From Bacillales bacterium (GTDB lineage Bacteria > Bacillota_I > Bacilli_A > RF39 > UBA660): DNA of 34,986 nucleotides. A program made the translations under genes and the position numbers. Shown piece after piece: positions 10,456 through 29,370 of the stretch. The notes under the pieces were generated by a model. That model made no database searches. It had not been told where the DNA came from and saw nothing but the letters and a program-made list of their open reading frames with translations. Within the stretch, counting starts at the first letter, position 1. Each line of letters begins with the position of its first letter. The DNA lies in assembly GCA_016291995.1 (NCBI GenBank), contig JAEEZV010000022.1, positions 1-34,986 on the forward strand, read 5' to 3'.

Positions 10456-10515
10456 AAGTATATCCCTCCAATAGATATATACAAAGTTTTTAAGCGTTTT
10501 ACTTTTTTTAAGCAC

Positions 10516-10551: not shown

Positions 10552-11808
10552 TTAATAATTTACATTAGAGCCCTTAGTAAAATTGCCGGATCCTTTATTA
10601 GTTAAAAAAGTACCATTAACTATTTCATATAAACCGATAGCCTGAGACTCCTTATCATAACAAGGAACATAACTACGTATAAGATTATTATTACTGTATA
10701 GACTTAAACTATATATTCTACCAGTATAATAATAATTAGGCCCACCAGTACCATTATAGGCAAATAACATTAAATATCTTGATGATCCTCCCGGATAAAC
10801 ATAAGATGATGTATAATTAGTACCATTTATATTTAGCGTCGTTCCAGACGAAGTAGTCGTTGCTATATAGTGAACTTTTTGATTGTAAAGTGCCGTAGAG
10901 TTTTTAACTGCTCCTGCATTGGTCCAAACGCCAGGTTTACCAGTTGAATCAAAATAATATTGAATACTTTTAGTATCGCCAACTCCAGCAAATGTAGGTT
11001 GTGAACCAGCACCAGATGGAGTATATACATCTGCTTCTACTTTAAAGTTTGATGACGGTATAACATCAGTTATAATATATTGTGCACCACTTGATTGAAT
11101 ATACTCTACTTGCTGATATTCAGAAGGTAAATTGCCAGCTGTTTGTTTTGCATATGCATTGATATTACCACTAAATGGTACATTATTATATGTGTTATCG
11201 GAATTATATCCATCTAACCAAAGATATATATAAAATACTCTTTCTGTCTTTGTAACACTAAAACCAGTATGAACTGGTGTATTAGCTCCAATCATACTAC
11301 TTGTAACATAGCCAACACTAACAGGATCTCCTGTCGTATCATCTTCATATATTGCATATTTTAAAGCTGTCCCATTTGTTACCCATGAACCACTATGACT
11401 AGTACAATCGCTACTAGTCTTATAATCATTTAATGTTTCTAATGTAGTAGGATTCTCACAATGAGCAGCAACAGTTGTACCAAAAACGGCACCGGTTCCA
11501 CTATTGATTTGCATCTTTAGTGTACCTTCTCCACTAATTGTACAATTATTATTAATCTTCATTGATACTTTTCCACCAAGTGTCCCAGGTCTTAAAGGAC
11601 CAGATGATGGAAATAATGTTCCTGTGATATCTTGTGTATTATCATCATTATTAATATTATAATCGATTAAAAAACAATCCGTAACTCCACTATAATTACC
11701 ATCGGATACAACTACTTGTGAATTAAACCACGCAAATGTTCCTCCAGCAACAGCTACACCGATAAAAATTACTAACATTGATAAAAGAAGTGCCTTTTTC
11801 TTATCCAT
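10552..11808 (-). CDS. Secreted TasA-like protein with SipW-type signal and C-terminal ConA/LamG-like domain
   Basis: Likely start MDKKK at 11808 (RBS AGAGGT); signal ...VAVAGGTFAWF; ALKYAI...FYIYLWLD; C-terminal EYIQSSGAQYI...YVPCYD...GLYEIVNGTFLTNKGSGNF. Confidence 0.7.
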   Translation of the reverse strand: MDKKKALLLSMLVIFIGVAVAGGTFAWFNSQVVVSDGNYSGVTDCFLIDYNINNDDNTQDITGTLFPSSGPLRPGTLGGKVSMKINNNCTISGEGTLKMQINSGTGAVFGTTVAAHCENPTTLETLNDYKTSSDCTSHSGSWVTNGTALKYAIYEDDTTGDPVSVGYVTSSMIGANTPVHTGFSVTKTERVFYIYLWLDGYNSDNTYNNVPFSGNINAYAKQTAGNLPSEYQQVEYIQSSGAQYIITDVIPSSNFKVEADVYTPSGAGSQPTFAGVGDTKSIQYYFDSTGKPGVWTNAGAVKNSTALYNQKVHYIATTTSSGTTLNINGTNYTSSYVYPGGSSRYLMLFAYNGTGGPNYYYTGRIYSLSLYSNNNLIRSYVPCYDKESQAIGLYEIVNGTFLTNKGSGNFTKGSNVNY

Positions 11809-11832
11809 GTAATCACTACCTCTACTATATAA

Positions 11833-11861
11833 AGAATACCATATATAGGGTATATTTTCAA
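11833..11861 (-). promoter_or_regulatory. SigA-type promoter of TasA-like gene
   Basis: TTGAAA-17 nt-TATTCT with extended TG; lies inside the longer ORF-track version, supporting the 11808 start. Confidence 0.55.
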
Positions 11862-11899
11862 TAAGTTTTATTTTTTTTGACATTTTTTTAAAATTTATC

Positions 11900-12081: not shown

Positions 12082-13989
12082 ATGTTTACTAAGGGAATAA
12101 ATAAAAGAATTAAAATCATTTTACTAGTAATTATCTTTTTATTTTTAATAATTATTATAAGAGTATTTTATATTCAAGTTTTTGATTATAAAAAATTAAA
12201 TAACTTAGCTAGTAATCTTTGGAATAGAAATCTTATTATTGGTGCTAATAGAGGTCGAATACTAACTAGTGATAATATTGTCGTTGCAGATAATACAACA
12301 ACCGTTTCCTTAGTTGTAGTTCCAAATCAAATAAAAAATAAAGATGATGTTATAAGAGACTTAGCTAAAATTTTAGATGTTAATGAAAACAAAATAAGCG
12401 AACATGTAAATAAAAAATCATCCGTTGAAATAATTCATCCAGAAGGAAGAAAATTATCTTTTGCTATCGCTGACAAAATTAATAATTTAAACTATGATGG
12501 AGTATATCTTTTAAAAGAAGGTAAAAGATCATATCCTTATGATACACTTTTATCCCATAGTATTGGCTATGTTGGAATAGATAATCAAGGATTATCTGGA
12601 TTAGAACTAAAATATGATAAATATCTTACAGGTACCAATGGTGCAATTAAATACTATTCTGATGCCAAAGGAAATAAACTAAATAAAAGTAGTATATATG
12701 TTGAACCAACTGATGGCCTAGATTTATATTTAACAATCAACTATAACATTCAAAGTGCTGTCGAAAGAGAATTAAATAATGCTATATCTAAATATAATGC
12801 CGATGGTGCTTGGGCTATCGTTATGAATCCCCAAAATGGAGAAATATTAGCCATCTCTTCAAAGCCCGACTTTTCACCAAGCAATTATAAAAACTATGAT
12901 ATTGAAACAATAAATAGAAATCTTGCCATTTGGTCGACCTATGAACCGGGATCGACATTTAAAATAATTACTCTAGCCGCCTCTATTGAAGAAAAAACTG
13001 TTGACTTACTGAAAGATACTTTTTATGACGGAGGTAGTGTCAATGTTGAAGGAGCTAGAATAAGATGTTGGAAAGCAGGAGGACATGGTAGCCAAACATA
13101 CCTAGAAGTAGTTCAAAATAGCTGTAATCCCGGTTTTGTATCCTTAGGAAATAAACTAGGAAAAGAAAGACTATTTAAATATATTAAAGAATTTGGCTTT
13201 GGTAGTAAAACAGGAATCGATTTAAATGGCGAAAGTAATGGAATACTTTTTAATTTAGATAATGTTGGCCCTGTCGAATTAGCTACCACTTCTTTTGGTC
13301 AAGGAATAAGTGTTACTGCGATCCAGCAAATTACCGCTGTTTCTGCTGCAATCAATGGAGGCTTTTTATATAAACCATATATTGTAAAAAGAATTGTCGA
13401 ACCAAACACGGGTGAAATAATCTTGGAAAATAGTCCTAAATTAATGAGAAATGTCATAAGTAAAGAAACCAGTCAGACCGTAAGAATGGCTCTAGAAACA
13501 GTCGTAGCTTATGGAACTGGAAGAAATGCTTACATTGAAGGATACCGAATTGGTGGTAAGACTGGTACTGCTCAAAAAGTAAAAAATGGTGTTTATATGA
13601 CTGGTAACTATATTTTATCATTTGTAGGATTCTTACCTGCTGATAATCCTAAAGCCGTTATCTACGTTGCTATTGATAACCCAAAAGGAGTTGTCCAATA
13701 TGGGGGAACAGTTTCTGCACCAATAGCAAAAAATATCATGATAGATGTTATCGAAGAATTAAATATCAAAGGATCTGATTATACTCTAGAAAAAACATAT
13801 AATTGGTATGATACAAAATATGCCAAAATACCCAATATTATTGGTAGTAATATAGATGATGTCAAAAAAAATCTTAAAGACTTTACTATTGAATATGCTG
13901 GAAATGGTAAAATAATTAAAGAAATATCTCCTAGTGGTGGTACTTATATCCCTATTGGTAGTACCATAAAGATACTTTTAGGAAACTGA
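12082..13989 (+). CDS. spoVD: Class B penicillin-binding protein, SpoVD-like, with C-terminal PASTA
   Basis: EPGSTFK (SxxK), SCN, KTGTAQK; LWNRNL..ANRGRIL, IRCWKAGGHGSQTYLEVVQNSCNPGFV match SpoVD. Confidence 0.88.
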   Translation: MFTKGINKRIKIILLVIIFLFLIIIIRVFYIQVFDYKKLNNLASNLWNRNLIIGANRGRILTSDNIVVADNTTTVSLVVVPNQIKNKDDVIRDLAKILDVNENKISEHVNKKSSVEIIHPEGRKLSFAIADKINNLNYDGVYLLKEGKRSYPYDTLLSHSIGYVGIDNQGLSGLELKYDKYLTGTNGAIKYYSDAKGNKLNKSSIYVEPTDGLDLYLTINYNIQSAVERELNNAISKYNADGAWAIVMNPQNGEILAISSKPDFSPSNYKNYDIETINRNLAIWSTYEPGSTFKIITLAASIEEKTVDLLKDTFYDGGSVNVEGARIRCWKAGGHGSQTYLEVVQNSCNPGFVSLGNKLGKERLFKYIKEFGFGSKTGIDLNGESNGILFNLDNVGPVELATTSFGQGISVTAIQQITAVSAAINGGFLYKPYIVKRIVEPNTGEIILENSPKLMRNVISKETSQTVRMALETVVAYGTGRNAYIEGYRIGGKTGTAQKVKNGVYMTGNYILSFVGFLPADNPKAVIYVAIDNPKGVVQYGGTVSAPIAKNIMIDVIEELNIKGSDYTLEKTYNWYDTKYAKIPNIIGSNIDDVKKNLKDFTIEYAGNGKIIKEISPSGGTYIPIGSTIKILLGN

Positions 13990-14037
13990 CAACAACATGT
14001 CAACCACTAATTTAAATATATATTATTGATACTTTTA

Positions 14038-14046
14038 TGGTATAAT
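14038..14046 (+). promoter_or_regulatory. Extended -10 SigA promoter for mraY
   Basis: TGGTATAAT about 20 nt upstream of mraY ATG. Confidence 0.55.
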
Positions 14047-14066
14047 GTTGGTGAAGGAAGTGAAAT

Positions 14067-15059
14067 ATGCTAACTTTAACAAAATCGTTATTTGCTCTTA
14101 TGATTGGCTTCATTATTACTACCGCTTTTGGTCTAGTGGCTATTCCACTTTTAAGAAAGATCAAAGCGGGACAAAGAATAAATGTATATGTTGAAACTCA
14201 TCAAAGAAAATCTGGTACACCTACTATGGGTGGACTAATATTCATAATCCCAACTATTTTGGCGACGATAATGTTAATAATTACAAATAAAATTGAATTT
14301 TCAGTTAACTTATTAATTGTTTTATTTGTATTTATCTCTTATAGTATTATTGGTTTCTTAGATGATTATCTAAGTATTAGAAAAAATCAAAATGAAGGAC
14401 TTACACAAATAGAAAAATTATTACTACAATTTGTCGTAGCCTTAATATTCTATGTACTATATTGTAAATATACAACTGCTAATTCCATATTAGAAATTAC
14501 CGCTCTAGGTATTAAATGGAATTTAGGTTGGGGATATGGTTTATTTATTTTATTCTTATTGGTTGGTACAAGTAATGCTGTTAATCTAACAGATGGCTTA
14601 GATGGTTTAGCTGGTGGTTTATCCGCTATTGCCTTTGTTGCCTTTGGTCTAATATCTTGGGGAAGTTACTGGATACAAGGTTACCAAGATATGGGTATCT
14701 TCTGTTTCATTGTCGTAGGTAGTTTGATGGGATTCTTAGTATATAATACAAATCCTGCTAAAGTATTTATGGGAGATACTGGTTCCCTTACATTAGGAGC
14801 TACATTAGCTACAATTGCTATTCTTACTAACCATGAATTATCTCTTGCCGTTATCGGTGGTGTATTCGTAATAGAAACACTAAGTGTTATGATTCAAATA
14901 ACATCCGTTGTCCTATTTAAAAAGAAAGTATTCTTAATGACACCAATTCACCATCACTTTGAAAGACTTGGATGGCGTGAAGGAGATATCGTTAAAGTAT
15001 TTTGGATAGCAGGATTTATCTTATGTCTACTAGCCTTAATATATGGCGTATGGTTATAA
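14067..15059 (+). CDS. mraY: Phospho-N-acetylmuramoyl-pentapeptide transferase
   Basis: GTPTMGG, GFLDDY, NAVNLTDGLDGLA, VFMGDTGS, PIHHHFE. Confidence 0.97.
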   Translation: MLTLTKSLFALMIGFIITTAFGLVAIPLLRKIKAGQRINVYVETHQRKSGTPTMGGLIFIIPTILATIMLIITNKIEFSVNLLIVLFVFISYSIIGFLDDYLSIRKNQNEGLTQIEKLLLQFVVALIFYVLYCKYTTANSILEITALGIKWNLGWGYGLFILFLLVGTSNAVNLTDGLDGLAGGLSAIAFVAFGLISWGSYWIQGYQDMGIFCFIVVGSLMGFLVYNTNPAKVFMGDTGSLTLGATLATIAILTNHELSLAVIGGVFVIETLSVMIQITSVVLFKKKVFLMTPIHHHFERLGWREGDIVKVFWIAGFILCLLALIYGVWL

Positions 15060-15082
15060 AAGCACAGAAATGTGCTTTTTTT
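15058..15082 (+). terminator. Intrinsic terminator after mraY
   Basis: AAAAGCACA-gaaa-TGTGCTTTTTTT. Confidence 0.75.
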
Positions 15083-15115
15083 ATGTATTAAACATATAAT
15101 TTAATGTGATTAAAT

Positions 15116-16198
15116 ATGAAAAAAATAGATAAAGTATTACTCTATTCCGTAATTATATTATCTTTATTTGGTCTATTAATGATTTATTCATCTTCATCTA
15201 TATGGGCAGAATATAAGTTTAATGATCCATATAAATATTTAAAAAGCCAAGGTATATTTCTTTTTTTAGGATATATCATCATGTTTTTTATCTCCAAAAT
15301 AGATTTTAAAATATATAAAAAATATAGTAATATCATCCTTATGATATGTCTTGGATTGCTTATCCTTGTTTTAATTCCTGGTATTGGTACAATTAGAAAT
15401 GGAAGTAGAAGTTGGTTTGGTATAGGGCCATTAGGTATTCAACCCAGTGAAGCCGCCAAAATAGGATTAATTATCTTTACTTCAAAATATTTAAGTAATA
15501 ATAAAATTAAAGATATTAAGCATTCTATATTGCCAATATTGATAATTCTTTTTCTAACATTTGCTCTTATCATGTTACAACCAGATTTAGGTACCGGTGT
15601 AATTATTGTCATGTCCGTTATCTCCCTCTTATTTATCTCGGGTGTAAATATGAGTTTCTTTATTAAAATGGGTATATTGGGACTAATCGGTATCATCGTT
15701 TTAATTATTATTGCTCCGTATCGTATTGCAAGAATTACTTCCTTTATAAATCCTTGGTCAGATCCATTAGGCAGTGGTTTTCAAATAATCCAAAGTTTGT
15801 ATGCCATAGGACCTGGTGGACTACTTGGTATGGGTATTGGCAATTCTATTCAAAAACACTTCTATTTACCAGAACCACAAACAGATTTTATCTTTTCCAT
15901 TATCAGTGAAGAATTAGGATTCGCTGGAATACTAATCGTATCCCTTCTCTTTATAACTATTATCTACCGAGGAATTAAAATATCTTTATCTATTGAAGAT
16001 AAATTTGCTAAATATTTATCCTTTGGCATAACCTTTAGTATTACCTTTCAATCTATCCTCAATTTAATGGTCGTAATAGGACTAATTCCTGTTACTGGTG
16101 TCACACTACCATTTCTATCTTATGGTGGCTCTAGCTTAATAATTTCCCTGTTAGAAATAGGAATTCTATTAAACATCTCTAAAAAAGAAGATCTATAA
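15116..16198 (+). CDS. spoVE: SEDS peptidoglycan glycosyltransferase, SpoVE-like (FtsW/RodA/SpoVE family)
   Basis: IQPSE..K, LQPDLGT, LPEPQTDFIF..ISEELG, PVTGVTLPFLSYGGSS; MIYSSSSIWAEYKFND resembles the SpoVE N-terminus. Confidence 0.85.
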   Translation: MKKIDKVLLYSVIILSLFGLLMIYSSSSIWAEYKFNDPYKYLKSQGIFLFLGYIIMFFISKIDFKIYKKYSNIILMICLGLLILVLIPGIGTIRNGSRSWFGIGPLGIQPSEAAKIGLIIFTSKYLSNNKIKDIKHSILPILIILFLTFALIMLQPDLGTGVIIVMSVISLLFISGVNMSFFIKMGILGLIGIIVLIIIAPYRIARITSFINPWSDPLGSGFQIIQSLYAIGPGGLLGMGIGNSIQKHFYLPEPQTDFIFSIISEELGFAGILIVSLLFITIIYRGIKISLSIEDKFAKYLSFGITFSITFQSILNLMVVIGLIPVTGVTLPFLSYGGSSLIISLLEIGILLNISKKEDL

Positions 16199-16210
16199 CA
16201 GATCTTCTTC
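16181..16210. terminator. Hairpin over overlapping convergent stop codons (possible bidirectional terminator)
   Basis: AAGAAGATCT-ataac-AGATCTTCTT. Confidence 0.55.
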
Positions 16211-17584
16211 TTCATTTTCTTCTTCCACTACTTTCTTTTTTCTACTTCTTGGTTTAGTTGCTTTTGCTTCTTTAACTTCTTTTAATTCTCTACCCAATTT
16301 TCTTTTAGATGCTGCTAAAGCAATTATTAGAATTAATAAAGCAAAAATTATACCAAGAGCTATTAACAAATATTTATAGTATGTATTCATATTATTTTTA
16401 TATAAATCTAACACTTCTAGATTATATCTTTGTACTGTCTTTTCCTTAGCATCATATTGATATAAACTAGTCTTACCAGTCTCAACATTTTTGGCATAGA
16501 ATAAGTAAAATTGATTACCCGTAATTTCTTCATTATCAAGAGCATATGTATTCTTTAAAATATCTAACTTTACTTCTTGATAACTAGGGATACTCTCTTC
16601 TCCATAGATGAAATTTGTCTTTTTATAACCTTTAGGCATTTCATCATCCAAAAGTTGTAATGTTACATTACCAAAAGTATACTCTTTATATAATGTATAT
16701 TTATTATCTTTATAAATATAATAATCTACACTACCCTCATCATCTTTTAGACCAACTAAAGTATAATCTAGTTTTTCATTGTAGTATCCATCTACTTTTT
16801 CTTCGCCAATTTCTACTTCTTTTTCTTCATAATATTCACTTATTTCAGGTAACTCATCTTTCTTTCTAACAACCGTATATGATTCATTATCTACCTGAAC
16901 TTCAATTGGTTTTAATTCCTCAACCGTTGCTTTAATCACATATGTTCTTTTACTACCATTAGCAGCTGTTACAACAACATTTAATGTATTAGTACCTGTA
17001 ACCAAAGCTACTTCACCAGTTCCTGTTACTCTAGCATCAGAATCAGCTAATTGAGCATTAATTTTAACTTTATTTGTTTCAGCAGGAAGAGTTAAAGTAT
17101 ATTCTAAAACTTCTTTATCAAAACTCTCATTTAATTTGTAACCTTCAACTGTCAAACTACTTAAATAATTATTTGAAGATTTTGGTTTAACAGGTGTTGT
17201 TGTCGTATTTCCACCAGTTGATTTAGCTCTAACTGTTACGGTAACTGTCTTACTTCCTTTTATAGCATTTTCATTATAATCGCTTACATCTGTAGCTGTT
17301 ACCGTAATTTTAGCAGTTCCTGCCTTATTTGCTTTTAATGATATACTTTCAGTCTTACTGTCTACCCAAACAGAACCACTTGCTATACTTAAAACTGAAC
17401 TATCAGATGTTGTAACAGTAAATTGTCCAGCAGCCTCGCTTGCTGTAATATTTAAAGAAATACTATTACCTACCGTTACAGTACTACTAGTAACAGAAAT
17501 ACTAAATCCAGCTGCAAAAACATTTGCTATAAATAACATAAAACTAAAAATTGTTACTGTAAATAACTTAATAATCTTTTTCAT
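16193..17584 (-). CDS. Membrane-anchored surface protein: cohesin/Ig-like N-domain, cadherin-like beta-sandwich, C-terminal TM
   Basis: Signal peptide (VFA), N-domain with TVTVGNSISLNIT...LKANKAGTAKITV, Thr linker, SSNNYLSSLTV...VTAANGSKRTYVI, TM plus basic/acidic tail. Confidence 0.7.
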   Translation of the reverse strand: MKKIIKLFTVTIFSFMLFIANVFAAGFSISVTSSTVTVGNSISLNITASEAAGQFTVTTSDSSVLSIASGSVWVDSKTESISLKANKAGTAKITVTATDVSDYNENAIKGSKTVTVTVRAKSTGGNTTTTPVKPKSSNNYLSSLTVEGYKLNESFDKEVLEYTLTLPAETNKVKINAQLADSDARVTGTGEVALVTGTNTLNVVVTAANGSKRTYVIKATVEELKPIEVQVDNESYTVVRKKDELPEISEYYEEKEVEIGEEKVDGYYNEKLDYTLVGLKDDEGSVDYYIYKDNKYTLYKEYTFGNVTLQLLDDEMPKGYKKTNFIYGEESIPSYQEVKLDILKNTYALDNEEITGNQFYLFYAKNVETGKTSLYQYDAKEKTVQRYNLEVLDLYKNNMNTYYKYLLIALGIIFALLILIIALAASKRKLGRELKEVKEAKATKPRSRKKKVVEEENEEEDLL

Positions 17585-17594
17585 GTCCTTCTCC

Positions 17595-19571
17595 TTACTG
17601 TACTATAAGTTTAGTACCCATTATATGATTCTTTATCGCTATATAATCAGCTGATGATATATCACCACTTTTATTTGCGTCAGCACTTTGTACGCTAACT
17701 CCGCTCAACTTTTTAGTACCCATTATATGATTCTTTATCGCTATATAATCAACAGAACTAATTAATCCGTCACCATTTACATCACCATAAATGATAAGTG
17801 TATATGTTTTTTCTTCTCTACTTGTTTTAATATTGATTACATCACCTGTTGCAATAATACCATTATTCTTAAGTTCCCCATCTTTATTCTTATATGTTAC
17901 TGTTGCCTTAGGTTCCTTATCCGTAATACTTTTAATAATTGCTGCGGCATCAGTACCGGTTTTATATCCATATACATATGTTCCGTCATTCTTTATTCCT
18001 AAGACTCTTAATATTTCCGCAATATCAAGTGCTTCTTCAACAGCATTCCTTTTAATAGTTAATACATATGTCCTTTTATCTCCATTTTCGGCAGTTACTA
18101 CAATACTTATTTCCTCTTGATCATTTTCAAGTGAAATACTTCCTGTACCACTAACTGTTGATCTATTACTTACTTTACTAGCTGCAATTTCTACTGTTTT
18201 AGTACTTGCATCTAAATTAAGATCATATTTTGTCTTAGAACTAGCCTTTTGGAATAAATAACTACCATTTACTGATAAACTACTCAAAAAGTTATTTGGG
18301 TTACCAATATTTGGTAAAGATACTTTCTCAGGCATATTTTTATATACTGGTATTGAAAATACAAAATCACTATTTAACATATTAACATTGCTATATGCCC
18401 TATATGTTTTAACTGATTCATTAGCTGGAGCCTCAATATTCTGCATATATTGGTGATTGACCAGAGAGTTTCCTACCATATCCCATTTTTGCAAGTATAA
18501 TGTATCTTGTCCCACAGATACATAATCATTAGCTAGGAAACTTGCTCCCCCAACAATAGCTTTATAATGAGTATTCCAGCCTTGTTCCTTCGCGTGCTTT
18601 AATCCGTTGGCAATCGTTTCAGCACTACCATTTCCAGAAGCTTTAATATTATAAAAGTTGTAATATCCTTCGTATCCAGCCACTGTACCAGATACAATTG
18701 TACTACCCTGAGCTCCCACTTCTTGTATTACTCTAGATATTAAAACATATGGACTAATATTATATTCCGTCGCTGCGTCTAAGAAAGCATCGACATATGT
18801 TTTTTTATTATCAGAATCAGCATATCCTTGCATAAAAGTGCCATTTAACATCTTTGTAACGCCTTCAGCAGTATGATAATTACTATTATAAGATAATGCT
18901 TCATACATAAATACTTGTCTTTCATTTAAAAAGTTACGTGGATCCATATAATAAGCAATTGTTGCTTTATTCGCTGCAAACCAATATGTTCCTCCACCTC
19001 TAAAATCATTTGAAAACGTATCAGTTAAATAATTATATGACCAAGAAGCAGTTGATTTATATCCATCACGACTTCTATTGGTATCTTCAATTAAACTCCA
19101 TCCTTGAGAATATCCATCATATTCTTTCGTTACCATACTATTAAAATCTTGTTTTATGTCATATACTTTGAATGACCAAGTCGGATATTTAACATGTAAT
19201 GTAACTAAATATGGAATATAACTATCCGGAAATCCTAAAGCTTTTAAATAATCACTATATTCTTCATAATCAGCCATATTTATTTCAGGTATTTCTTCTA
19301 TTTTAGTAAATTCACTACATATATAACCTACTGTCCCATTATTACTAGCTTTATACCATAATGTACATCCATTACCGGTACCAGCATTATCAGATATTAA
19401 TGATAATTGCTGTCCACTATTAAACATTGTAATAACAGAGCTTCCTGTCGTAGGTGCACTTCTAAAATTAACATAATCTTCTGTAACAACAATTATTTTT
19501 TCGGCAGATACAGAAAATGAAAAAATAACAAATGAAAAAACAAAGAAAACAAAATATGATATTTTTCTCAT
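17595..19571 (-). CDS. Secreted peptidoglycan hydrolase: SH3b + GH73-like glucosaminidase + cadherin-like + dockerin
   Basis: VNFRSAPTTGS...WYK...GYIC (SH3b); YYMDPRNFL, VIQEVG, YYNFYNI, GQDTLYLQKW, HQYMQNI; NNFLSSLSV...VTAENGDKRTY; duplicated Ca loops GDVNGDGLISSVD / ADANKSGDISSAD. Confidence 0.85.
   Translation of the reverse strand: MRKISYFVFFVFSFVIFSFSVSAEKIIVVTEDYVNFRSAPTTGSSVITMFNSGQQLSLISDNAGTGNGCTLWYKASNNGTVGYICSEFTKIEEIPEINMADYEEYSDYLKALGFPDSYIPYLVTLHVKYPTWSFKVYDIKQDFNSMVTKEYDGYSQGWSLIEDTNRSRDGYKSTASWSYNYLTDTFSNDFRGGGTYWFAANKATIAYYMDPRNFLNERQVFMYEALSYNSNYHTAEGVTKMLNGTFMQGYADSDNKKTYVDAFLDAATEYNISPYVLISRVIQEVGAQGSTIVSGTVAGYEGYYNFYNIKASGNGSAETIANGLKHAKEQGWNTHYKAIVGGASFLANDYVSVGQDTLYLQKWDMVGNSLVNHQYMQNIEAPANESVKTYRAYSNVNMLNSDFVFSIPVYKNMPEKVSLPNIGNPNNFLSSLSVNGSYLFQKASSKTKYDLNLDASTKTVEIAASKVSNRSTVSGTGSISLENDQEEISIVVTAENGDKRTYVLTIKRNAVEEALDIAEILRVLGIKNDGTYVYGYKTGTDAAAIIKSITDKEPKATVTYKNKDGELKNNGIIATGDVINIKTSREEKTYTLIIYGDVNGDGLISSVDYIAIKNHIMGTKKLSGVSVQSADANKSGDISSADYIAIKNHIMGTKLIVQ
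17610..17751. repeat. 40-bp perfect direct repeat (dockerin halves)
   Basis: TTTAGTACCCATTATATGATTCTTTATCGCTATATAATCA at 17610-17649 and 17712-17751, 102-nt period. Confidence 0.9.
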
Positions 19572-19594
19572 TTTGATACACCTACCTTTAGTTA

Positions 19595-19603
19595 ATTATA
19601 TCA
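19595..19603 (-). promoter_or_regulatory. Extended -10 SigA promoter for hydrolase operon
   Basis: TGATATAAT on minus strand about 24 nt upstream of ATG, RBS AGGTAGGTG. Confidence 0.5.
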
Positions 19604-19704
19604 AATGTATATGTTTTTGACTATGAACTAACTAGCACTTTACAAAAATTACTCTCCTACTTGTCATTAATATTATTTTTATATATAATTAAGTTGGTGG
19701 TTAT

Positions 19705-20286
19705 ATGTACACAATTAGTATTGACAACAAAAATGAAATTATCATTAAAAATTCCAAATTTATTGGTCTTATATATAAACTAGATAATGCTGACATAAAT
19801 ACTATATTAGACCATATTAGAAAAGAATATCCGGATGCAACACATTATTGTTATGCCTACATATATGAAAATAGTCAAAAATCAAATGATGATGGTGAAC
19901 CTAGTGGTACTGCAGGAATACCTATTTTAAAAGTATTAGAGGCCAACAATTTAACCAATACTCTAGTTGTTGTAGTTAGATATTTTGGTGGTATTAAACT
20001 AGGTGCCAATGGCCTAATAAGAGCCTATACAAAAGTTACCTCAAATTTAATAAAAGAAACACCTTTAGTTGAATTAATAGATGGCTTTAATTTAGATATC
20101 ACATTTGATTATTCCAAAATTAAAGAAATAGATTATCTCTTAAAAAATGAAAAAATAAATAATAAAACATTTGATAATACCATTACATATAACATATCCA
20201 TAAATAAAGATTTCTTAGACATTATTAAATCAAATAATATTACTTATAAAAATATTAAAGAAATAAAAATAGAAAGAACTATATGA
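19705..20286 (+). CDS. yigZ: YigZ/IMPACT family protein
   Basis: IKNSKFI, DATHYCYAY, DDGEPSGTAG.P, VVRYFGGIKLGANGLIRAY. Confidence 0.93.
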   Translation: MYTISIDNKNEIIIKNSKFIGLIYKLDNADINTILDHIRKEYPDATHYCYAYIYENSQKSNDDGEPSGTAGIPILKVLEANNLTNTLVVVVRYFGGIKLGANGLIRAYTKVTSNLIKETPLVELIDGFNLDITFDYSKIKEIDYLLKNEKINNKTFDNTITYNISINKDFLDIIKSNNITYKNIKEIKIERTI

Positions 20287-20977
20287 TTTTTCTTACTTTA
20301 ACATATAGTTCTTTATTTATATCTTCAATTGTTCTAATTTGTTTATCTTTAACGCAATCGATAACATCATAATCATATATTGCCGATAATTCTAAATAAG
20401 CTTTCTCTCCAAGTTTTAAATATTTTTCATTACGTTCAGTTTCATCTGCTACTTCTTTTCTGTCTTTCTTTAAAATACAAGCATATTCATATGGTAAGTA
20501 TAATAAAATAGTCAAATCTGGACGTGGTAATTCAAGTATATCATATTCCAAAGTTTCAATCTTTTTATAGATATCAAGTCTATCTTGTCTCTTTTCAAGT
20601 AATCCTCCTCTATGAGCCATATTGGAAGTAACATACCTATCGATAATTAAAATATATCCTTCATCAATTAATTGATTCAATTCAGAAAGATGATATCTAC
20701 GATCGGCCGCATAATAAAGTAATGCTGTTAAAGAATCGACATTTCCTCCACCTTCAGGAAAGAAACTATGATCTTCCTTTAATACTTCTTCACACATTGC
20801 CGGTTTTCCTAACAAACATGCCCCAACTATTTTACCCGTTGGACTATCATACCAAGGAAATGATAGTCTTTTTACTTTATATCCTTCCTTTTCTAATTTA
20901 GAAACCAACAAAGTTGTTTGTGTTTCTTTACCAGAGCAATCCGTTCCTTCGATAACTATTATCTTACCTTTTTTCAT
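20279..20977 (-). CDS. tmk: Thymidylate kinase
   Basis: IEGTDCSGKETQ P-loop, YAADR, DRYVTSNMAH, LPRPD. Confidence 0.88.
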   Translation of the reverse strand: MKKGKIIVIEGTDCSGKETQTTLLVSKLEKEGYKVKRLSFPWYDSPTGKIVGACLLGKPAMCEEVLKEDHSFFPEGGGNVDSLTALLYYAADRRYHLSELNQLIDEGYILIIDRYVTSNMAHRGGLLEKRQDRLDIYKKIETLEYDILELPRPDLTILLYLPYEYACILKKDRKEVADETERNEKYLKLGEKAYLELSAIYDYDVIDCVKDKQIRTIEDINKELYVKVRKII

Positions 20978-21022
20978 TCTATCACCATAATAAATATATC
21001 ATATTCATAAATGTTTTGACAA

Positions 21023-21814
21023 CTATTTATCTAAAATATATGATATAAAAATACCTAAAAAGAAAAACACAATCCCAAATATATTAAATTTAATATGTAT
21101 CGTCATAACCATTAAAGTAACTATACTGGCAATTGCTAAACCAAGAATAATTAAATACATTATATTTCTATGTTTTTTTAACAAATAATTAATCAAATAT
21201 ATATTTATAATAAAAGATACTATCATTCCTAATCCATATGAAAAATATATCTTAAAATTACTTATAACATAATTAATATCAAAAACATTAGCTATTATCC
21301 TAAGTACATCATTATAAATACCCATAATCATTAAAAGAGATGATCCACTAATCCCCGGTAAGATCGAAGCAAATATATCAGTATATCCACCAATAAAGAA
21401 AACTATATTGTTATCATTTTTAATATAAGCTGTATGATTAGATACACTAAATGTTAAAAATAAAAACATGAATAAAACAAACAAAATAATGATTATATTT
21501 TTTAAATTATAATTAATTTTCTTACCAAAATTATATGTTCCTCCTAATATTAAACCAATAAAAAATAGCATTGTAACAAATTTAAAATTATTTAAAAAAT
21601 ATAAAAGTATATTACTACATAATACTATAGATAATAATACTCCCCCAAAAAAGATAACAATCGTTTTCAAATTATTTTTCCAATCAGAAAGAAAATCAGT
21701 TAGTGCATCTAATATTCTTTCATAGATATTAAAATTAATAGCTAACAGTGCTCCAGATACTCCAGGCATTATTTTGCCGATACCAACGATAAAACTTTTT
21801 ATAAATAAAAGCAT
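21023..21814 (-). CDS. DUF368 family membrane protein (undecaprenyl-phosphate translocase family)
   Basis: Twin motifs MPGVSGALLA..IYE and LPGISGSSLL..GIY, FFIGLILG, multi-TM. Confidence 0.85.
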   Translation of the reverse strand: MLLFIKSFIVGIGKIMPGVSGALLAINFNIYERILDALTDFLSDWKNNLKTIVIFFGGVLLSIVLCSNILLYFLNNFKFVTMLFFIGLILGGTYNFGKKINYNLKNIIIILFVLFMFLFLTFSVSNHTAYIKNDNNIVFFIGGYTDIFASILPGISGSSLLMIMGIYNDVLRIIANVFDINYVISNFKIYFSYGLGMIVSFIINIYLINYLLKKHRNIMYLIILGLAIASIVTLMVMTIHIKFNIFGIVFFFLGIFISYILDK

Positions 21815-21836
21815 TATATCACCAATAAATAATATG

Positions 21837-21861
21837 AAAAAAAGAGCAATTAATGCTCTTT
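21837..21861 (-). terminator. Intrinsic terminator ending the cohesin operon
   Basis: AAAAAAAGAGCA-attaa-TGCTCTTT. Confidence 0.7.
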
Positions 21862-23056
21862 ATTCAAAACTTTGCATATTCTTTTTATAATAGTACATTG
21901 CAACTCCAAGTGAAGCTATTAAAACTATCGCCATAATAAATGCACTCGTTCCACCAGTACTAGGATTAACTGGTGGCTTTTGACTAGGCGTAGCAGATGA
22001 ACCAGCTTTCTTAACAGTAATCGTATAAGAAACTTGTTCGACTAAATTCTCTTTATGATTTATAGTTATTAATACTTGTCCTTCACCTGATAATACTTTA
22101 GGTGGAACAAAGAATGAAGAAAATTCATAGTTTTCACTATCTTTAAGTGTTGCATCAACTGTATATGAAGAAACATCATCAAGTGTTACTTCATATTCAT
22201 ATTTAGAACTAGATAAAGTAACATTCTTACCACCAACAGTCAAAGTTGCAAGTTCTCCACCTTCTACTTCTTGTGGAACAGGTCTGGCAACATTAAGTGT
22301 ATATATTACTTGGTTATCTCCTTCACCAACATATATCTTAACTTGCATATTTGTTTGACCACTAGGTGGATTAAATTCAATACTACTTGCATTAAGAGTT
22401 GCATCCGTATGACCATTCTTAATAACAATTGTATCATTAGCATTTTTACTAGTAGCAGAAATACCAAATGTAGTCGTAGTTTCACTATCTAGAAGAACAG
22501 CATATCCTGTATCATTATCTAATGATGAGAAAGGCCTACCCAAAGTACCATTAGTAATAGATAAATTCTTAAGACCTTTTTCCGTTTCTACCGGTTCTGA
22601 TCCAGAACCAACTGTAACTGATACTGTTGCATCGCTAACAGAATAATTATCATCCAAATCATAGAATTTAACATCCGTAAGTTTGATAGTTTTACTTCCC
22701 TCACTTATTGAATCAGAAAGTTTAAATTTTATTGATCCAATTTGAAATGATCCATTGGCTGGATTTCCCATATATGGAGCAATTTTATTACCATTAATTG
22801 TCTTACCTTCCCAATTGTCATCAGCAAAAGTAATATTTTGAGAATTAATTTCTATTCCATCAGGTAAATCAAACGTACCAGTTACACCATATATATCAGT
22901 ATCGGTCGTTCCGCTTAAAGAACACGTAATTATATCTCCTGCTTTAGCTTCTGATGGTGAACAACTCATAGATAAAGTACCAGATAATGCATTTACCGTA
23001 ATTGGGAAAAACAACATCAATGAAATTGTCAACAATAACTTTAGTTTATTTCTCAT
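21860..23056 (-). CDS. Sortase-type anchored surface protein: cohesin-like + two cadherin-like domains + NPSTG sorting signal
   Basis: Signal peptide (VNA), CSPSEAKAGDIITC...IGSIKFKL...KTIKLTDVKFYD; LKNLSI and LATLTV cadherin-like starts; NPSTGG-TM-YYYKK. Confidence 0.7.
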   Translation of the reverse strand: MRNKLKLLLTISLMLFFPITVNALSGTLSMSCSPSEAKAGDIITCSLSGTTDTDIYGVTGTFDLPDGIEINSQNITFADDNWEGKTINGNKIAPYMGNPANGSFQIGSIKFKLSDSISEGSKTIKLTDVKFYDLDDNYSVSDATVSVTVGSGSEPVETEKGLKNLSITNGTLGRPFSSLDNDTGYAVLLDSETTTTFGISATSKNANDTIVIKNGHTDATLNASSIEFNPPSGQTNMQVKIYVGEGDNQVIYTLNVARPVPQEVEGGELATLTVGGKNVTLSSSKYEYEVTLDDVSSYTVDATLKDSENYEFSSFFVPPKVLSGEGQVLITINHKENLVEQVSYTITVKKAGSSATPSQKPPVNPSTGGTSAFIMAIVLIASLGVAMYYYKKNMQSFE

Positions 23057-24402
23057 TTTTGCACCTCCAAAGTACTTATCTTTCCAAGTATGAATTGATG
23101 TAATTTAATAACATCACTTAAATCGACATTTCCGTTACCGTTGACTTCACCGGCCGTTAAATAAGCACCAGTAAGATGACTTATATCGATATTGTGTTGA
23201 TGTAATTTAATAACATCACTTAGGTCTACTGTACCACTACCATTTACATCTCCTAGTACAGATAACGTATATTCCAAAGTCTCATCACTAAATGCTATTT
23301 TTAAAACATCGCCTGTCCTAATTTTATCAGAATCGGTAACACTTTGACCTTTTGAATTAGTAATACTAATAGTACCTGATGTATCAAAATAATTTTTAAG
23401 ATTTGCATAACTTGTATTAGCTTTCAATCTTTCAATTGTCATCGTTGTATCATTAACTTTTAAACTCTCATCAATAACAAGTTTTTTACGTTTAAAACTA
23501 TATCTATCAATTTCATTATTATTATACATAATTAATAATTTACAATCATCATTTATTATTGTGTTAGCATCAGTAATTGCCGTACCATTCTTATTTATAA
23601 CCTTAATAGTAACTGTACTACTTGTAATATTTTGACTGATCTCACTATAATACGTATTATCAACATCATTAAGATATATTACTTTATCCATAATTTGATA
23701 ATCGGAATGGAATCTTATAATGTTTATTTCCTTAATTACTGTTCCACTACGCTTAAGTATTAATTTACCATCGCTAATACTATAAGCTATATTAGAATCA
23801 TTCGAACCAAGATTACTTATAATTACAGCATCTTCATCTGATCTAGTATAGATATAATTAGCATCTGCATTATATTCATAAACATCCGTACTAAATTCAT
23901 GCTCTGCCTCAACAGTAACCGTTGCTTCGACATCAGCCAATTCAATCATATTATATTCGTCATCGCATAGTTCAATATTAGTTAATTTAATTTTATAAGT
24001 CTTACCTGCTTCGGCATCATCTGCTATTTTTAGTTTTATTTGACCAACTGTTGTATTTGATGTTACACCAGTAGTTTTAACAATTGCAAATCCTTTAGCT
24101 GAACTAGCATACGTTTCAAAATCACCTTTAGCAGTAAATGACGTATATGTCAACTTTGAATCCAAAGTATAGTTTGCATTTACTGATAAAACTTTAACAT
24201 TTGATATCTTCAAATTAACATCGCATGTAATTATTGCTCCAGGCTCTGCTTCACTAGGTGAACAAGTAAGCGCTACACTACTTGTTGTATCTACACTATA
24301 TGTCCCTTTATTTATCCAAAATACAGACATCAGTATAAATAAACTAGCCACCGAAGCCAAACAAATACTAATTCCTAAATTCTTTCTTATAAAACTTCCC
24401 AT
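23053..24402 (-). CDS. Secreted cohesin-like + dockerin protein (adaptor-scaffoldin-like)
   Basis: N-terminal signal/TM; CSPSEAEPGAIITC...VGQIKLKIADDAEAGKTYKIKLTNIELCD; C-terminal GDVNGSGTVDLSDVIKLHQH / GEVNGNGNVDLSDVIKLHQF. Confidence 0.75.
   Translation of the reverse strand: MGSFIRKNLGISICLASVASLFILMSVFWINKGTYSVDTTSSVALTCSPSEAEPGAIITCDVNLKISNVKVLSVNANYTLDSKLTYTSFTAKGDFETYASSAKGFAIVKTTGVTSNTTVGQIKLKIADDAEAGKTYKIKLTNIELCDDEYNMIELADVEATVTVEAEHEFSTDVYEYNADANYIYTRSDEDAVIISNLGSNDSNIAYSISDGKLILKRSGTVIKEINIIRFHSDYQIMDKVIYLNDVDNTYYSEISQNITSSTVTIKVINKNGTAITDANTIINDDCKLLIMYNNNEIDRYSFKRKKLVIDESLKVNDTTMTIERLKANTSYANLKNYFDTSGTISITNSKGQSVTDSDKIRTGDVLKIAFSDETLEYTLSVLGDVNGSGTVDLSDVIKLHQHNIDISHLTGAYLTAGEVNGNGNVDLSDVIKLHQFILGKISTLEVQK
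23095..23222. repeat. 26-bp perfect direct repeat (dockerin halves)
   Basis: TTGATGTAATTTAATAACATCACTTA at 23095-23120 and 23197-23222, 102-nt period. Confidence 0.85.
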
Positions 24403-24417
24403 ATTCCCTCCATAATG

Positions 24418-25260
24418 TTATTTTTTCTTCATAATCATCCTTAAAACATTAAATATAACTAAGAACACAATAATAGATATTAGAATTTTTTTCATATCAA
24501 TTACATTCTTTTTTTCTACCGTAACTGCCTCTTTTTTAATATTGATAGTATACGTTACCTCATAATCATCTTTACTTACAACAATACTGATAACACTACC
24601 ATCTTTTAAGTTTTTATTACCTTCTATTTTATATGTCGATAAAGCATTACTTAAAATAGGAGTAATAGCAAGTTCATCTTCATTATCTATAGTAAGATCA
24701 TAATTATATACATCTTTATCAAATGCTAAATAATAATTATCGATAATTATATCTTCTAAATATATATCTTCAGTAGCAGCAGGAGTTTCTACCGCAGGCT
24801 GCTCCTTCGTATTACTGCTCACAGTACCATTATTTGATACGCTAGTCTCTTTCATATTAACCGTAACAGATACTGAATCAATCGCTGTATTATCATCAGC
24901 AGTATAAAAAGCAACATCTTTTAGTTCTATTAATCCTGGATTACTACCACTTTTTTTAAATTTAGCAGTTCCAATTTTAAAAGTATTCTTAATTTCATCT
25001 GCCGTATATATTGATACCTTACCATTAGAGCCATATCCATTCCATATTGCATTATGTACGAATGAGACAAACAACAAGCCATCATTTGTAACTATATTAG
25101 TCTCGACACCAGAAATTGCAGAATCAGTACTACCACTGATTTCACAAGTAAATTCTTCCCCATCAAAAGCCTCTTTTGGGCAACTAATAGTAATGCTATC
25201 AGCATACACATGTAATGGGCATAACAATAAAATAAATAATGTCAATATTTTTTTCTTCAT
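24418..25260 (-). CDS. Membrane-anchored surface protein: cohesin-like + cadherin-like + C-terminal TM
   Basis: Signal peptide (VYA), CPKEAFDGEEFTC...IGTAKFKK...IELKDVAFY; YLEDIII...FDKDVYNY...YTINI; TM + KKK. Confidence 0.7.
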   Translation of the reverse strand: MKKKILTLFILLLCPLHVYADSITISCPKEAFDGEEFTCEISGSTDSAISGVETNIVTNDGLLFVSFVHNAIWNGYGSNGKVSIYTADEIKNTFKIGTAKFKKSGSNPGLIELKDVAFYTADDNTAIDSVSVTVNMKETSVSNNGTVSSNTKEQPAVETPAATEDIYLEDIIIDNYYLAFDKDVYNYDLTIDNEDELAITPILSNALSTYKIEGNKNLKDGSVISIVVSKDDYEVTYTINIKKEAVTVEKKNVIDMKKILISIIVFLVIFNVLRMIMKKK

Positions 25261-29345: not shown

Positions 29346-29370
29346 AAAAAGAGCATAAGCTCTTTTTTTT
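29344..29370. terminator. Bidirectional intrinsic terminator
   Basis: AAAAAAAGAGC-ataa-GCTCTTTTTTT between convergent genes. Confidence 0.8.

Follow-up and report, generated by a model that had tools for sequence, protein, structure and literature searches.

This study concerns a contig of 34,986 nucleotides (hereafter the window; GenBank JAEEZV010000022.1, assembly GCA_016291995.1) from a Bacillales bacterium of the GTDB lineage Bacilli_A; RF39; UBA660, and two gene groups on its minus strand, B-A and E-D-C, whose products are made of cellulosome-type parts. We propose, with a probability of about 0.58, that these groups are two separate surface modules: B and A would constitute a membrane-tethered housekeeping autolysin, and E, D and C a set of proteins bearing a single cohesin each. 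The five genes and the predicted layout of their products are as follows.

16193-17584, minus strand: gene A, an open reading frame (ORF) of 463 amino acids (aa); signal peptide, immunoglobulin (Ig)-like N-domain, cadherin-like domain, third beta domain, C-terminal transmembrane (TM) helix
17595-19571, minus strand: gene B, ORF of 658 aa; secreted, with signal peptide, SH3b domain, SagB-like GH73 glucosaminidase, cadherin-like domain, X-like module, dockerin
21860-23056, minus strand: gene C, ORF of 398 aa; signal peptide, cohesin, cadherin-like region, NPSTG sortase signal
23053-24402, minus strand: gene D, ORF of 449 aa; N-terminal hydrophobic segment, cohesin, middle region, X-like module, dockerin
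24418-25260, minus strand: gene E, ORF of 280 aa; signal peptide, cohesin, cadherin-like domain, C-terminal TM anchor (model with a predicted local distance difference test score (pLDDT) of 87, helix 256-279)

Ten base pairs separate the stop codon of B from the start of A, D and C overlap by 4 bp, the E-D gap is 15 bp, and 2288 bp lie between the end of C and the start of B. The window (~29% G+C) is contig C21 of a genome of 828 kb that is 79% complete, a figure that limits every genome-wide absence or "only" reported for it below. L-numbers designate named loci of relatives and G-numbers the genomes compared, G000 being the source genome itself.

The domains of B were placed as follows.

19308-19475, minus strand: SH3b (SH3_3) wall-binding-type domain, B 33-88 (PF08239, E-value 6.4e-10; SH3b-type PDB matches 2kt8 and 2kq8)
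18330-19028, minus strand: GH73 catalytic core with E284, B ~182-414 (family profile against the PDB)
18048-18287, minus strand: cadherin-like beta-sandwich, B 429-508 (PF12733, E-value 1.1e-5, 26.2 bits against a cut-off of 24.2)
17802-18029, minus strand: X-like small module before the dockerin, B ~515-590 (tblastn; no Pfam family)
17622-17789, minus strand: dockerin, B 595-650 (PF00404, E-value 8.2e-14, 52 bits against a cut-off of 22.9; in the genome scan E-value 1.4e-14, 54.2 bits)

Searched against the PDB, the family profile of B retrieved SagB (6fxp, E-value 1.6e-30; 6u0o, 3.9e-30), AtlE (4pi7, 4e-27) and Atl (6fxo, 8.5e-25). In this profile the Glu of the SagB block sHaLlEtGa, which we take to be the catalytic residue of GH73 enzymes, aligned to E284 in the RVIQEVGA block of B, and E284 was invariant in 18 orthologues. 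By homology of its catalytic domain, B is a GH73/SagB-like N-acetylglucosaminidase for which peptidoglycan hydrolysis is predicted. Its core scored 74 bits with the NCBIfam SagB model (E-value 8.8e-21), below the cut-off of 425 bits, so that B is a relative of SagB and not an equivalog; as a single sequence it reached 15.1 bits with Pfam Glucosaminidase (cut-off 30.2). Dockerin loops follow the consensus D/E-x-N-x-D/N/S-G...D and are followed by a helix. The dockerin of B, read from the ORF translation, consists of two near-identical calcium-loop/helix segments (DVNGDGLISSVDYIAIKNHIMG and DANKSGDISSADYIAIKNHIMG), and its loops DVNGDGLISSVD and DANKSGDISSAD stand in two tandem segments of ~22 residues, as expected of a dockerin. 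At least 119 relatives share 58-67% identity with B, and a dockerin was present in every one listed. A tblastn search with D residues ~337-447 aligned to the C-termini of B orthologues, indicating a module common to B and D that we call X-like on an assumed analogy with X-Doc dyads.

The neighbouring gene A encodes the following domains.

17225-17512, minus strand: Ig-like (Big_2/intimin-type) N-domain, A 25-120, the proposed dockerin socket (model pLDDT ~92)
16925-17164, minus strand: cadherin-like beta-sandwich, A 141-220 (PF12733, E-value 1e-8)
16421-16903, minus strand: membrane-proximal beta-rich domain, A ~228-388 (modelled strands 228-387, disordered loop 342-357)
16301-16375, minus strand: C-terminal TM helix, A ~404-428 (hydrophobic stretch YLLIALGIIFALLILIIALAAS; modelled helix 389-441)

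The VIA structure alignment of the A N-domain gave intimin 1f02 as best match (Z 11.4, 1.9 Å over 86 residues); intimin/Big_2-type Ig domains scored from Z 11.4 to 9.8, and the first cohesin, 2vo8, came at rank 50 with Z 8.7. No link to the cohesins of C, D and E was found by hhalign (probability 0.3%). The same domain is homologous to longer N-domains of distant A orthologues (hhalign 96%, E-value 1.6e-9); cellulosomal cohesins made up 12 of the 20 weak PDB matches of these longer domains (best E-value 0.0017), and one of 19 A orthologues reached Pfam Cohesin (E-value 1.7e-4). The A N-domain is possibly a trimmed cohesin derivative. The PF12733 module was present in all 19 A orthologues, and a basic/acidic cytoplasmic tail follows the TM helix. 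Residues ~228-388 had no Pfam match, and the best hit of an Atlas search with A 225-392 scored 0.85, below the threshold of 0.9, with anonymous clusters; Foldseek with full-length A retrieved only generic multi-Ig proteins (S-layer proteins, intimin, cadherins).

The association of the two genes is strictly conserved. A homologue of A followed B on the same strand in all 20 named loci with a dockerin-bearing B, down to 32% identity in B. We searched 121 genomes from 73 genera of the order with profiles for B, A and the cohesin type of C, D and E: B was matched in 89 genomes (56 of the 73 genera) and A in 94, and comparison of the coordinates by hand placed an A-family match directly downstream of B in each of the 89. 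One genome, G114, holds two complete B-A pairs on separate contigs (C74:7572-10857 and C51:1500-4779). In relatives, the gene directly after certain large dockerin-bearing frames (1,416-2,922 aa) likewise matches A, over A residues 1 to ~231 (A-like genes at G084:C1:281469-282535, G105:C6:112105-113351, G093:C2:196640-198054 and G054:C119:8239-9414), which suggests a general arrangement of a dockerin gene followed by an anchor gene in this family. Outside the lineage, a Clostridia metagenome-assembled genome (MAG; L080:9872-15335) carries a GH73-dockerin gene, an A-like gene with a new type of N-domain, a canonical cohesin protein of 345 aa ending in LPKTG, and a sortase, so that in that Clostridia lineage the hydrolase pair adjoins a wall-anchored cohesin. 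An Oscillospiraceae MAG (L032:1775-5251) has a shorter SH3b-GH73-dockerin protein of 509 aa followed by an asparagine-synthase-like gene and no A-like anchor, indicating that the pairing is not universal outside the Bacilli lineage.

Even within the conserved pair, the dockerin of B and the N-domain of A change type together. Over 18 pairs, the distances of the two modules were correlated with a Spearman coefficient of 0.81, against 0.55-0.71 for the other module pairs. The partial Mantel correlation given both protein bodies was 0.67 for these pairs and 0.59 when 23 pairs were used, and in neither case did any of 5000 permutations score as high. Unsupervised clusters of dockerins and of A N-domains agreed with an adjusted Rand index (ARI) of 0.90 (k=5), 0.66 (k=4) or 0.86 (k=6), compared with 0.27-0.39 between module clusters and clusters of the catalytic core. 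Individual loci illustrate the exchange. In L008 the B core (70%) and the A body (68%) are nearest the clade of the window, to which they are 65-70% identical, and the dockerin (54%) and A N-domain (43%) are both nearest the distant L018. A dockerin of the LDLL.VQK type is paired with a longer A N-domain in L014, L019 and L021, both module types are shared by L081 (Clostridia) and L012, and L080 has a fifth type of both. On the maximum-likelihood tree of the B core (23 rows), the joint classes require seven changes where the minimum is four; L008 and L018 were rejected as one clade (approximately unbiased (AU) test, p 0.010), and L081 is sister to the class-I locus L013 with support 96/96. These results suggest that the dockerin and the N-domain of the anchor are a matched pair, exchanged together several times between lineages; we infer that the two bind each other, as part of the whole proposal and at the probability given for it.

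A structure prediction of A residues 23-222 with B residues 512-658, run with the alignments of both families and three controls, points the same way as the strict adjacency and the co-variation, even though it says little by itself. The complex scored 0.44 (runs of 0.44, 0.46 and 0.34) and the best control 0.00, a result classed as weak support. Marks of this kind were reached by 58 of 80 solved complexes and by 2 of 110 mismatched pairs; scores of 0.60 or less comprised only 7 of the 80 solved complexes, yet both of the mismatches that passed.

From these observations a mechanism can be drawn up that we think probably correct in outline. B would be secreted, and its C-terminal dockerin would plug into the N-terminal Ig-like domain of A. 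As a single-pass protein anchored by its C-terminal TM helix, A would then hold B at the outer face of the membrane. With such a fixed, membrane-proximal address, B would cut glycan strands of the cell's own peptidoglycan as a housekeeping autolysin. This is the likeliest role of B as judged from homology and context, namely its relationship to SagB, AtlE and Atl, the lack of a second SagB-type match in the genome, the strong conservation and broad distribution of B, and the wall-synthesis genes next to it. NlpC/P60 was not found in the genome, which at 79% completeness is no proof of absence.

The second group, E-D-C, carries cohesins and its own dockerin.

24847-25203, minus strand: cohesin-fold module of E, residues 20-138 (pLDDT 93-98)
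23896-24291, minus strand: cohesin-type module of D, residues 38-169 (homology to the E and C modules)
23086-23256, minus strand: dockerin of D, residues 383-439 (PF00404, E-value 2e-5, 25.1 bits against a cut-off of 22.9; in the genome scan E-value 1.2e-6, 28.8 bits)
22601-22990, minus strand: cohesin-type module of C, residues 23-152 (alignment with E and D; top profile-search match 9.3e-53)
21863-21967, minus strand: sorting signal of C, residues 364-398 (NPSTG-GTSAFIMAIVLIASLGVAMYYY-KKN, that is NPSTG, hydrophobic stretch and basic tail)

The N-domains of C, D and E are mutually homologous, span ~125 residues and share the motif SC.P.EA..G..iTC. Pfam Cohesin (PF00963) gave 17.6 bits on D (cut-off 24.1; E-value 0.0021; model positions 7-138 of 139), neither Pfam Cohesin nor NCBIfam made a cohesin call for C or E, and the profile of the three sequences, searched against PDB sequences, matched nothing but antibodies, by chance. 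Structure was far clearer. With the N-domain of E, modelled with 29 relatives, the top five PDB matches of Foldseek were non-cellulosomal cohesins of Clostridium perfringens (2vo8: E-value 6.5e-7, target TM 0.74, 3.0 Å over 129 columns), followed by cellulosomal cohesins of types I, II and III. Among 48,161 representative chains compared by VIA, ranks 1-16 were all cohesins (Z 16.6-12.5), aligned over ~120 residues at 2.0-2.8 Å, and generic Ig, MG and pilin domains scored Z 11.0 or less. The modelled N-domain of E is a cohesin fold, for which dockerin binding is predicted only, and by homology to E those of C and D are cohesins too.

In a search of 1.84 billion proteins the profile of these N-domains matched 572 representative clusters at E-values of 0.001 or less and 156 at 1e-10 or less, and of the 150 listed, 148 had a match starting no later than residue 60. 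Among 119 relatives bearing the domain, 45 had a cadherin-like module, 11 a dockerin, and 3 touched Pfam Cohesin (best E-value 0.0018). All 119 shared two invariant cysteines, located in the first strands of the domain (C27 and C39 in E). One would not expect two extracellular cysteines to be conserved in a gut anaerobe; they could form a disulfide, bind a metal or take part in a thioester-type link. The cadherin-like PF12733 module, above cut-off in A and B, was sub-threshold in C (162-258) and E.

By its motif, its tail and the presence of a sortase gene in the genome (C4:11615-12109, PF04203, E-value 2.5e-12), C qualifies as a sortase-anchored surface protein; its tail scored 13.3 bits with NF033846 (Rumino_NPXTG) and 13.5 bits with TIGR01167, both below the cut-offs. 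A crude regular expression found an NPxTG tail with a TM segment in 31 of 150 listed relatives of the C/D/E family. The dockerin of D has calcium loops (DVNGSGTVDLSD and EVNGNGNVDLSD) in two tandem segments, as dockerins do, and its helix motif DLSDVIKLHQ differs from SSVDYIAIKNH in B. We propose that E, anchored in the membrane, D, with its dockerin, and C, anchored by sortase, probably assemble with each other through the dockerin of D. By gene order the cohesin of C would be the likeliest socket, since in the large-dockerin loci described above the dockerin gene likewise precedes the A-like gene; one or two cohesins would then stay free. Co-variation gave no support to this choice: over seven trios, the correlations of the D dockerin with the cohesins of E, D and C were -0.19, -0.17 and -0.15, with 3838, 3904 and 3587 of 5040 permutations as high, and the partner cannot be read from them because all modules are near saturation. 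Only ten relatives of D besides itself were found in a search of 5.8 billion proteins, and the modules of the trio are 27-38% identical between species of one genus, compared with the 58-67% found for B, suggesting fast-evolving exposed proteins.

The genome contains three dockerins only, in B, D and a protein encoded outside the window on contig C49, and just one of them is on an enzyme; no plant carbohydrate-active enzyme (CAZyme) module occurs in these three proteins. The C49 protein (L001:7337-9553, minus strand, that is G000:C49; 738 aa; dockerin of 24 bits) has a signal peptide, an acidic E/T/P-rich linker, the dockerin at ~320-369, a cohesin-like module (Pfam Cohesin E-value 1.8e-4), a cadherin-like module and a TM anchor. 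Since this anchored protein carries both a plug and a socket, it could assemble with itself or form a bridge to C, D or E. Its gene is immediately upstream of a set of Tad/Flp pilus genes (two TadE-like proteins, a CpaE-like ATPase, a CpaF-type T2SSE ATPase and a TadB-like T2SSF protein), and dockerin-bearing frames of 753-785 aa recur in its relatives. C, D, E and the C49 protein have one cohesin-type module each, and as no protein found here carries several, a scaffoldin of the cellulosomal kind is missing.

The first-pass annotation of this DNA had been made from the sequence alone, and its inventory was borne out. The five secreted-protein ORFs lie where it had put them on the minus strand, in two operons ~2.3 kb apart with A 10 bp downstream of B, and it had rightly seen an SH3b-GH73-like hydrolase with a dockerin in B, a second dockerin in D, TM anchors in A and E, the NPSTG signal of C, and cohesin-like N-domains in all three proteins of the trio, for which its concern that they might fold as generic Ig or carbohydrate-binding modules did not materialize. 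Its description of A as cohesin/Ig-like plus cadherin-like was upheld for the Ig-like and cadherin-like parts, and no clear cohesin was recovered. It had also put forward a dockerin inventory and a synteny comparison as checks; the latter upheld the B-A linkage and not that of B-A with the trio.

Several observations indicate that the two groups belong apart. The C/D/E-type cohesin was matched in 22 of the 121 genomes, 20 of which also have B, leaving 69 of the 89 B genomes with B-A and no such match; in the near relatives G016 and G017, B-A was present and this cohesin was not matched. In G010, a genome of four contigs, B and the trio are on separate contigs. The complete E-D-C order recurs in six further loci of the genus, and in G013 and G009 E and C are kept with no D-like ORF. 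In the window, three unrelated genes lie between the two units, including the first of the following features, and a terminator-like hairpin directly follows C.

21023-21814, minus strand: DUF368/VCA0040-like membrane protein resembling an undecaprenyl-phosphate translocase (PF04018, E-value 6.2e-29)
21841-21861, minus strand: terminator-like hairpin directly after the C stop codon (3 such sites against 1.9 expected; weak alone)

From the distribution, the contig split in G010, the hairpin and the intervening genes, we conclude that B-A and E-D-C are independent modules and that their closeness here is not conserved.

A number of points weigh against this proposal as a whole. The A N-domain lacks a clear cohesin fold, and we know of no solved structure of a dockerin bound to a non-cohesin Ig domain. 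No more than ~100 bp of sequence separates the dockerin of B from the A N-domain, so that one recombination tract could replace both modules with no contact between them. The classes drawn by eye were not fully recovered by clustering (dockerins of classes III and IV were joined, and L014 formed a group of its own), the B-core tree brings two long branches together, and both the module classes and the group submitted to the AU test were named after the sequences had been inspected. The predicted complexes agree between runs in at least 0% of contacts, with pLDDT of the partners of at least 91 and no interface returned, and most predictions in the weak-support class are wrong, except where the pairing was likely beforehand. 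The standing of B as the only glucosaminidase is provisional at this genome completeness, and the genome also holds five Amidase_3 genes. The window and G001 keep B-A and the trio on one contig. Finally, no cohesin of the trio co-varies with the D dockerin, so that the wiring of the second module is a guess.

A wider proposal would make a dockerin gene followed by its own anchor gene a general grammar of surface display throughout a family of gut Bacilli with reduced genomes. The socket would not have to be a cohesin (here it would be an Ig-like derivative of ~95 residues), and the exchange of matched cassettes would provide each lineage with an address of its own. The wall hydrolase, potentially lethal, would then dock only on the membrane of its producer and not on that of neighbours, a form of self/non-self addressing. 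E-D-C would form another such private set, in which the membrane (E), the wall (C) and an outward-facing free cohesin (D) are linked across the envelope in a device for adhesion or capture. As one joint claim, we regard this as doubtful.

It is unlikely, in our estimation, that the tethered glucosaminidase is aimed at the walls of other bacteria, for competition or amino-sugar scavenging, with A presenting it outward. The first-pass annotation had offered both this and the positioning of an autolysin as purposes; the second fits best, and attack on foreign walls is less favoured. An attacking role has been put forward in print: PMC6487960 interpreted rumen-metagenome dockerins joined to putative lysozymes as a "defense or attack mechanism", and a review proposes a "lyticome", citing lysozyme activity in the cellulosome of Ruminococcus champanellensis (Morais 2016, via the passage in PMC6403190). 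The small genomes of the order (0.7-1.6 Mb in those sampled) and the repeated switching of dockerin and anchor types, which could reflect conflict, are also compatible with it. Against this stand the housekeeping nature of the closest solved homologues, the staphylococcal SagB, AtlE and Atl, the detection of no other SagB-type enzyme in the genome, the high conservation of B and its presence in 89 of 121 genomes of the order, and the wall-synthesis function of the flanking genes; moreover the membrane helix of A would put the enzyme under the cell's own wall and not beyond it.

We consider it quite unlikely that A is not the socket of B at all, the two being co-transcribed for another reason (A regulating or chaperoning B, or both binding wall polymers), with the dockerin binding something else and the co-variation resulting from a single recombination tract. 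The ~100 bp between the modules, the generic Ig fold of the A N-domain, the class and missing interface of the predicted complex, and the GH73-dockerin gene of L032 with no A-like neighbour could all be accommodated by this explanation. Neutral co-transfer, however, leaves unexplained that matched types persist at very different depths, and that L012 and L081, like L008 and L018, share both module types despite distant B cores. The controls at 0.00 against 0.44, the longer domain with marginal cohesin similarity held at the same position by distant A orthologues, and the A-like proteins directly following other large dockerin proteins of the family also argue for A as the socket.

The single cellulosome-like hierarchy that the first-pass annotation had proposed to join both operons, with the dockerin of B in a C/D/E cohesin, D as adaptor, C or E as anchor and the hydrolase displayed outside, is quite improbable despite the true cohesin folds of these N-domains, the resemblance of a TM-anchored, a dockerin-bearing and a sortase-anchored protein to anchoring and adaptor scaffoldins, the 2.3 kb separating the groups here (and their single contig in G001), and the two near-identical halves of the B dockerin that could allow a second partner, for it is at odds with the 69 B genomes having no cohesin match of this type, the contig split in G010, the co-variation of the B dockerin with A instead, the differing helices of the B and D dockerins, and the genes and hairpin between the units.

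SagB is attached through its own membrane helix; in the proposed B-A module attachment would be via a dockerin. The nearest functional parallel is nevertheless the Staphylococcus aureus SagB-SpdC pair, in which, according to the preprint, the membrane protein SpdC scaffolds and orients SagB to release nascent peptidoglycan (bioRxiv 10.1101/2020.05.21.109470). The two systems share a homologous catalytic domain (E-value ~1e-30) and, as proposed here, a glucosaminidase held at the membrane by a partner. They differ in that SpdC is a CAAX-like protein with eight TM segments, and A crosses the membrane once and carries Ig-like and cadherin-like ectodomains.

Wall hydrolases that bear dockerins have been published before, for R. 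bicirculans, R. champanellensis and the "lyticome". R. bicirculans, a non-cellulolytic gut Firmicute, is mentioned in passing in its source as having a GH73 wall hydrolase with one dockerin, and one cohesin. This is probably a module of the same type as B-A, as far as that brief mention goes; in the Clostridia loci L020, L080 and L081, the A of the B-A pair has a cohesin-like N-domain. The brief mention itself names no partner, mechanism or distribution; the socket here is an Ig-like sandwich of ~95 residues, the pair occurs in 89 of 121 genomes of a small-genome order of Bacilli, and co-switching is documented. In R. flavefaciens, RflaF_05439, with two NlpC/P60 domains and an X-dockerin, is reported to bind the sortase-anchored ScaE (PMC3573020). 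Such cellulosomal enzymes, as their sources describe them, resemble B in having a dockerin on a member of a peptidoglycan-hydrolase family that docks to a cell-anchored cohesin; they are additions to large cellulosomes for plant fibre, whose scaffoldins bear several cohesins and whose dockerins number from tens to hundreds. The source genome, by contrast, contains three dockerins, lacks a scaffoldin and encodes no plant CAZyme with a dockerin, and the anchor proposed is a dedicated membrane protein with a single socket. The two marks of a cellulosome, a multi-cohesin scaffoldin and dockerin-bearing plant CAZymes, were thus both missing from this incomplete genome. The phylum table of PMC6487960 lists no cohesins or dockerins for Tenericutes. 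Our literature search, which may be incomplete, found no description of a conserved pair of GH73-dockerin and membrane-anchor genes, of its distribution or of its co-switching.

For the cohesins of C, D and E, the best structural matches were those of C. perfringens glycoside hydrolases (2vo8, 2w1n, 2jh2, 2o4e) and of Archaeoglobus fulgidus (2xdh), with Z of 16.6, 15.9 and 14.3. These too are cohesins outside cellulose degradation; identity is 9-16%, and the C/D/E domains differ in escaping Pfam Cohesin and in their two invariant cysteines. They also stand at the N-terminus of small anchored proteins, whereas the C. perfringens cohesins are inside large enzymes. Cohesin-dockerin pairs have been re-purposed beyond cellulose in the gut in the amylosome of R. 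bromii (PMC4611034) and, according to its description, the mucinolysome of Limousia (PMC12997984), both of which assemble several catabolic enzymes; the second module here has no enzyme and the first a single wall enzyme. The C/D/E family, with its 572 clusters missed by Pfam and seen via structure, echoes structure-based cellulosome surveys (PMC13463774).

The usual interpretation of cohesin-dockerin pairs is that they signal fibre degradation. In this gut lineage, which is abundant, uncultured and of small genome size, the most conserved dockerin is carried instead by a SagB-type wall hydrolase of the cell itself, beside the gene of its proposed dedicated membrane anchor. If the pairing of B and A is real, it would represent a non-covalent, modular placement of an autolysin at the membrane, parallel to SagB-SpdC and made from different parts. 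It would also offer a natural series of at least four or five matched dockerin/socket types, including a socket shrunk to an Ig-like domain, for studying how specificity changes, and would call for caution in counting metagenomic dockerins and cohesins as evidence of cellulosomes.

The relatives of the source organism are uncultured gut MAGs sampled from rumen, goat and human. An alternative genetic code, considered because of "Tenericutes" labels, was rejected, as all ORFs are intact under table 11. A Pfam scan of the 24 other window ORFs of at least 120 aa revealed no plant-polysaccharide CAZyme, as the early annotation had noted; eight of the 24 had no Pfam match at an E-value of 1e-6. A promoter scan performed no better than shuffled sequence (63 sites against 67.6 expected), and no promoter is claimed. 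In a bovine-gut metatranscriptome (X1), three whole contigs of 193, 260 and 211 nt fell within gene A with 2-4 mismatches and one contig fell in yigZ; X5 and the remaining matches were partial, of 30-40 nt, X2 and X3 had no match to the window, and one RNA run contained 0.08 of the sampled words. This is too little for claiming transcription or co-transcription.

Genes for a penicillin-binding protein (PBP) transpeptidase, MraY and FtsW at 12082-16198 converge on A-B, and with the DUF368 gene counted in, genes for envelope biogenesis are abundant in this region. The PBP gene is transcribed divergently from a minus-strand pair just upstream of it (9604-10515 and 10552-11883), comprising a Bro-N domain protein (E-value 1.6e-7) beside an ORF of 443 aa with no Pfam match; Bro-N is often found in proteins of phages and mobile elements. 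At the other end of the window, two adjacent minus-strand ORFs (29369-31792, 807 aa, and 31795-34035, 746 aa) each encode an N-terminal ABC ATPase, and the former also has a C-terminal FtsX-like permease, indicating a fused ATPase-permease of the MacB/FtsEX type.

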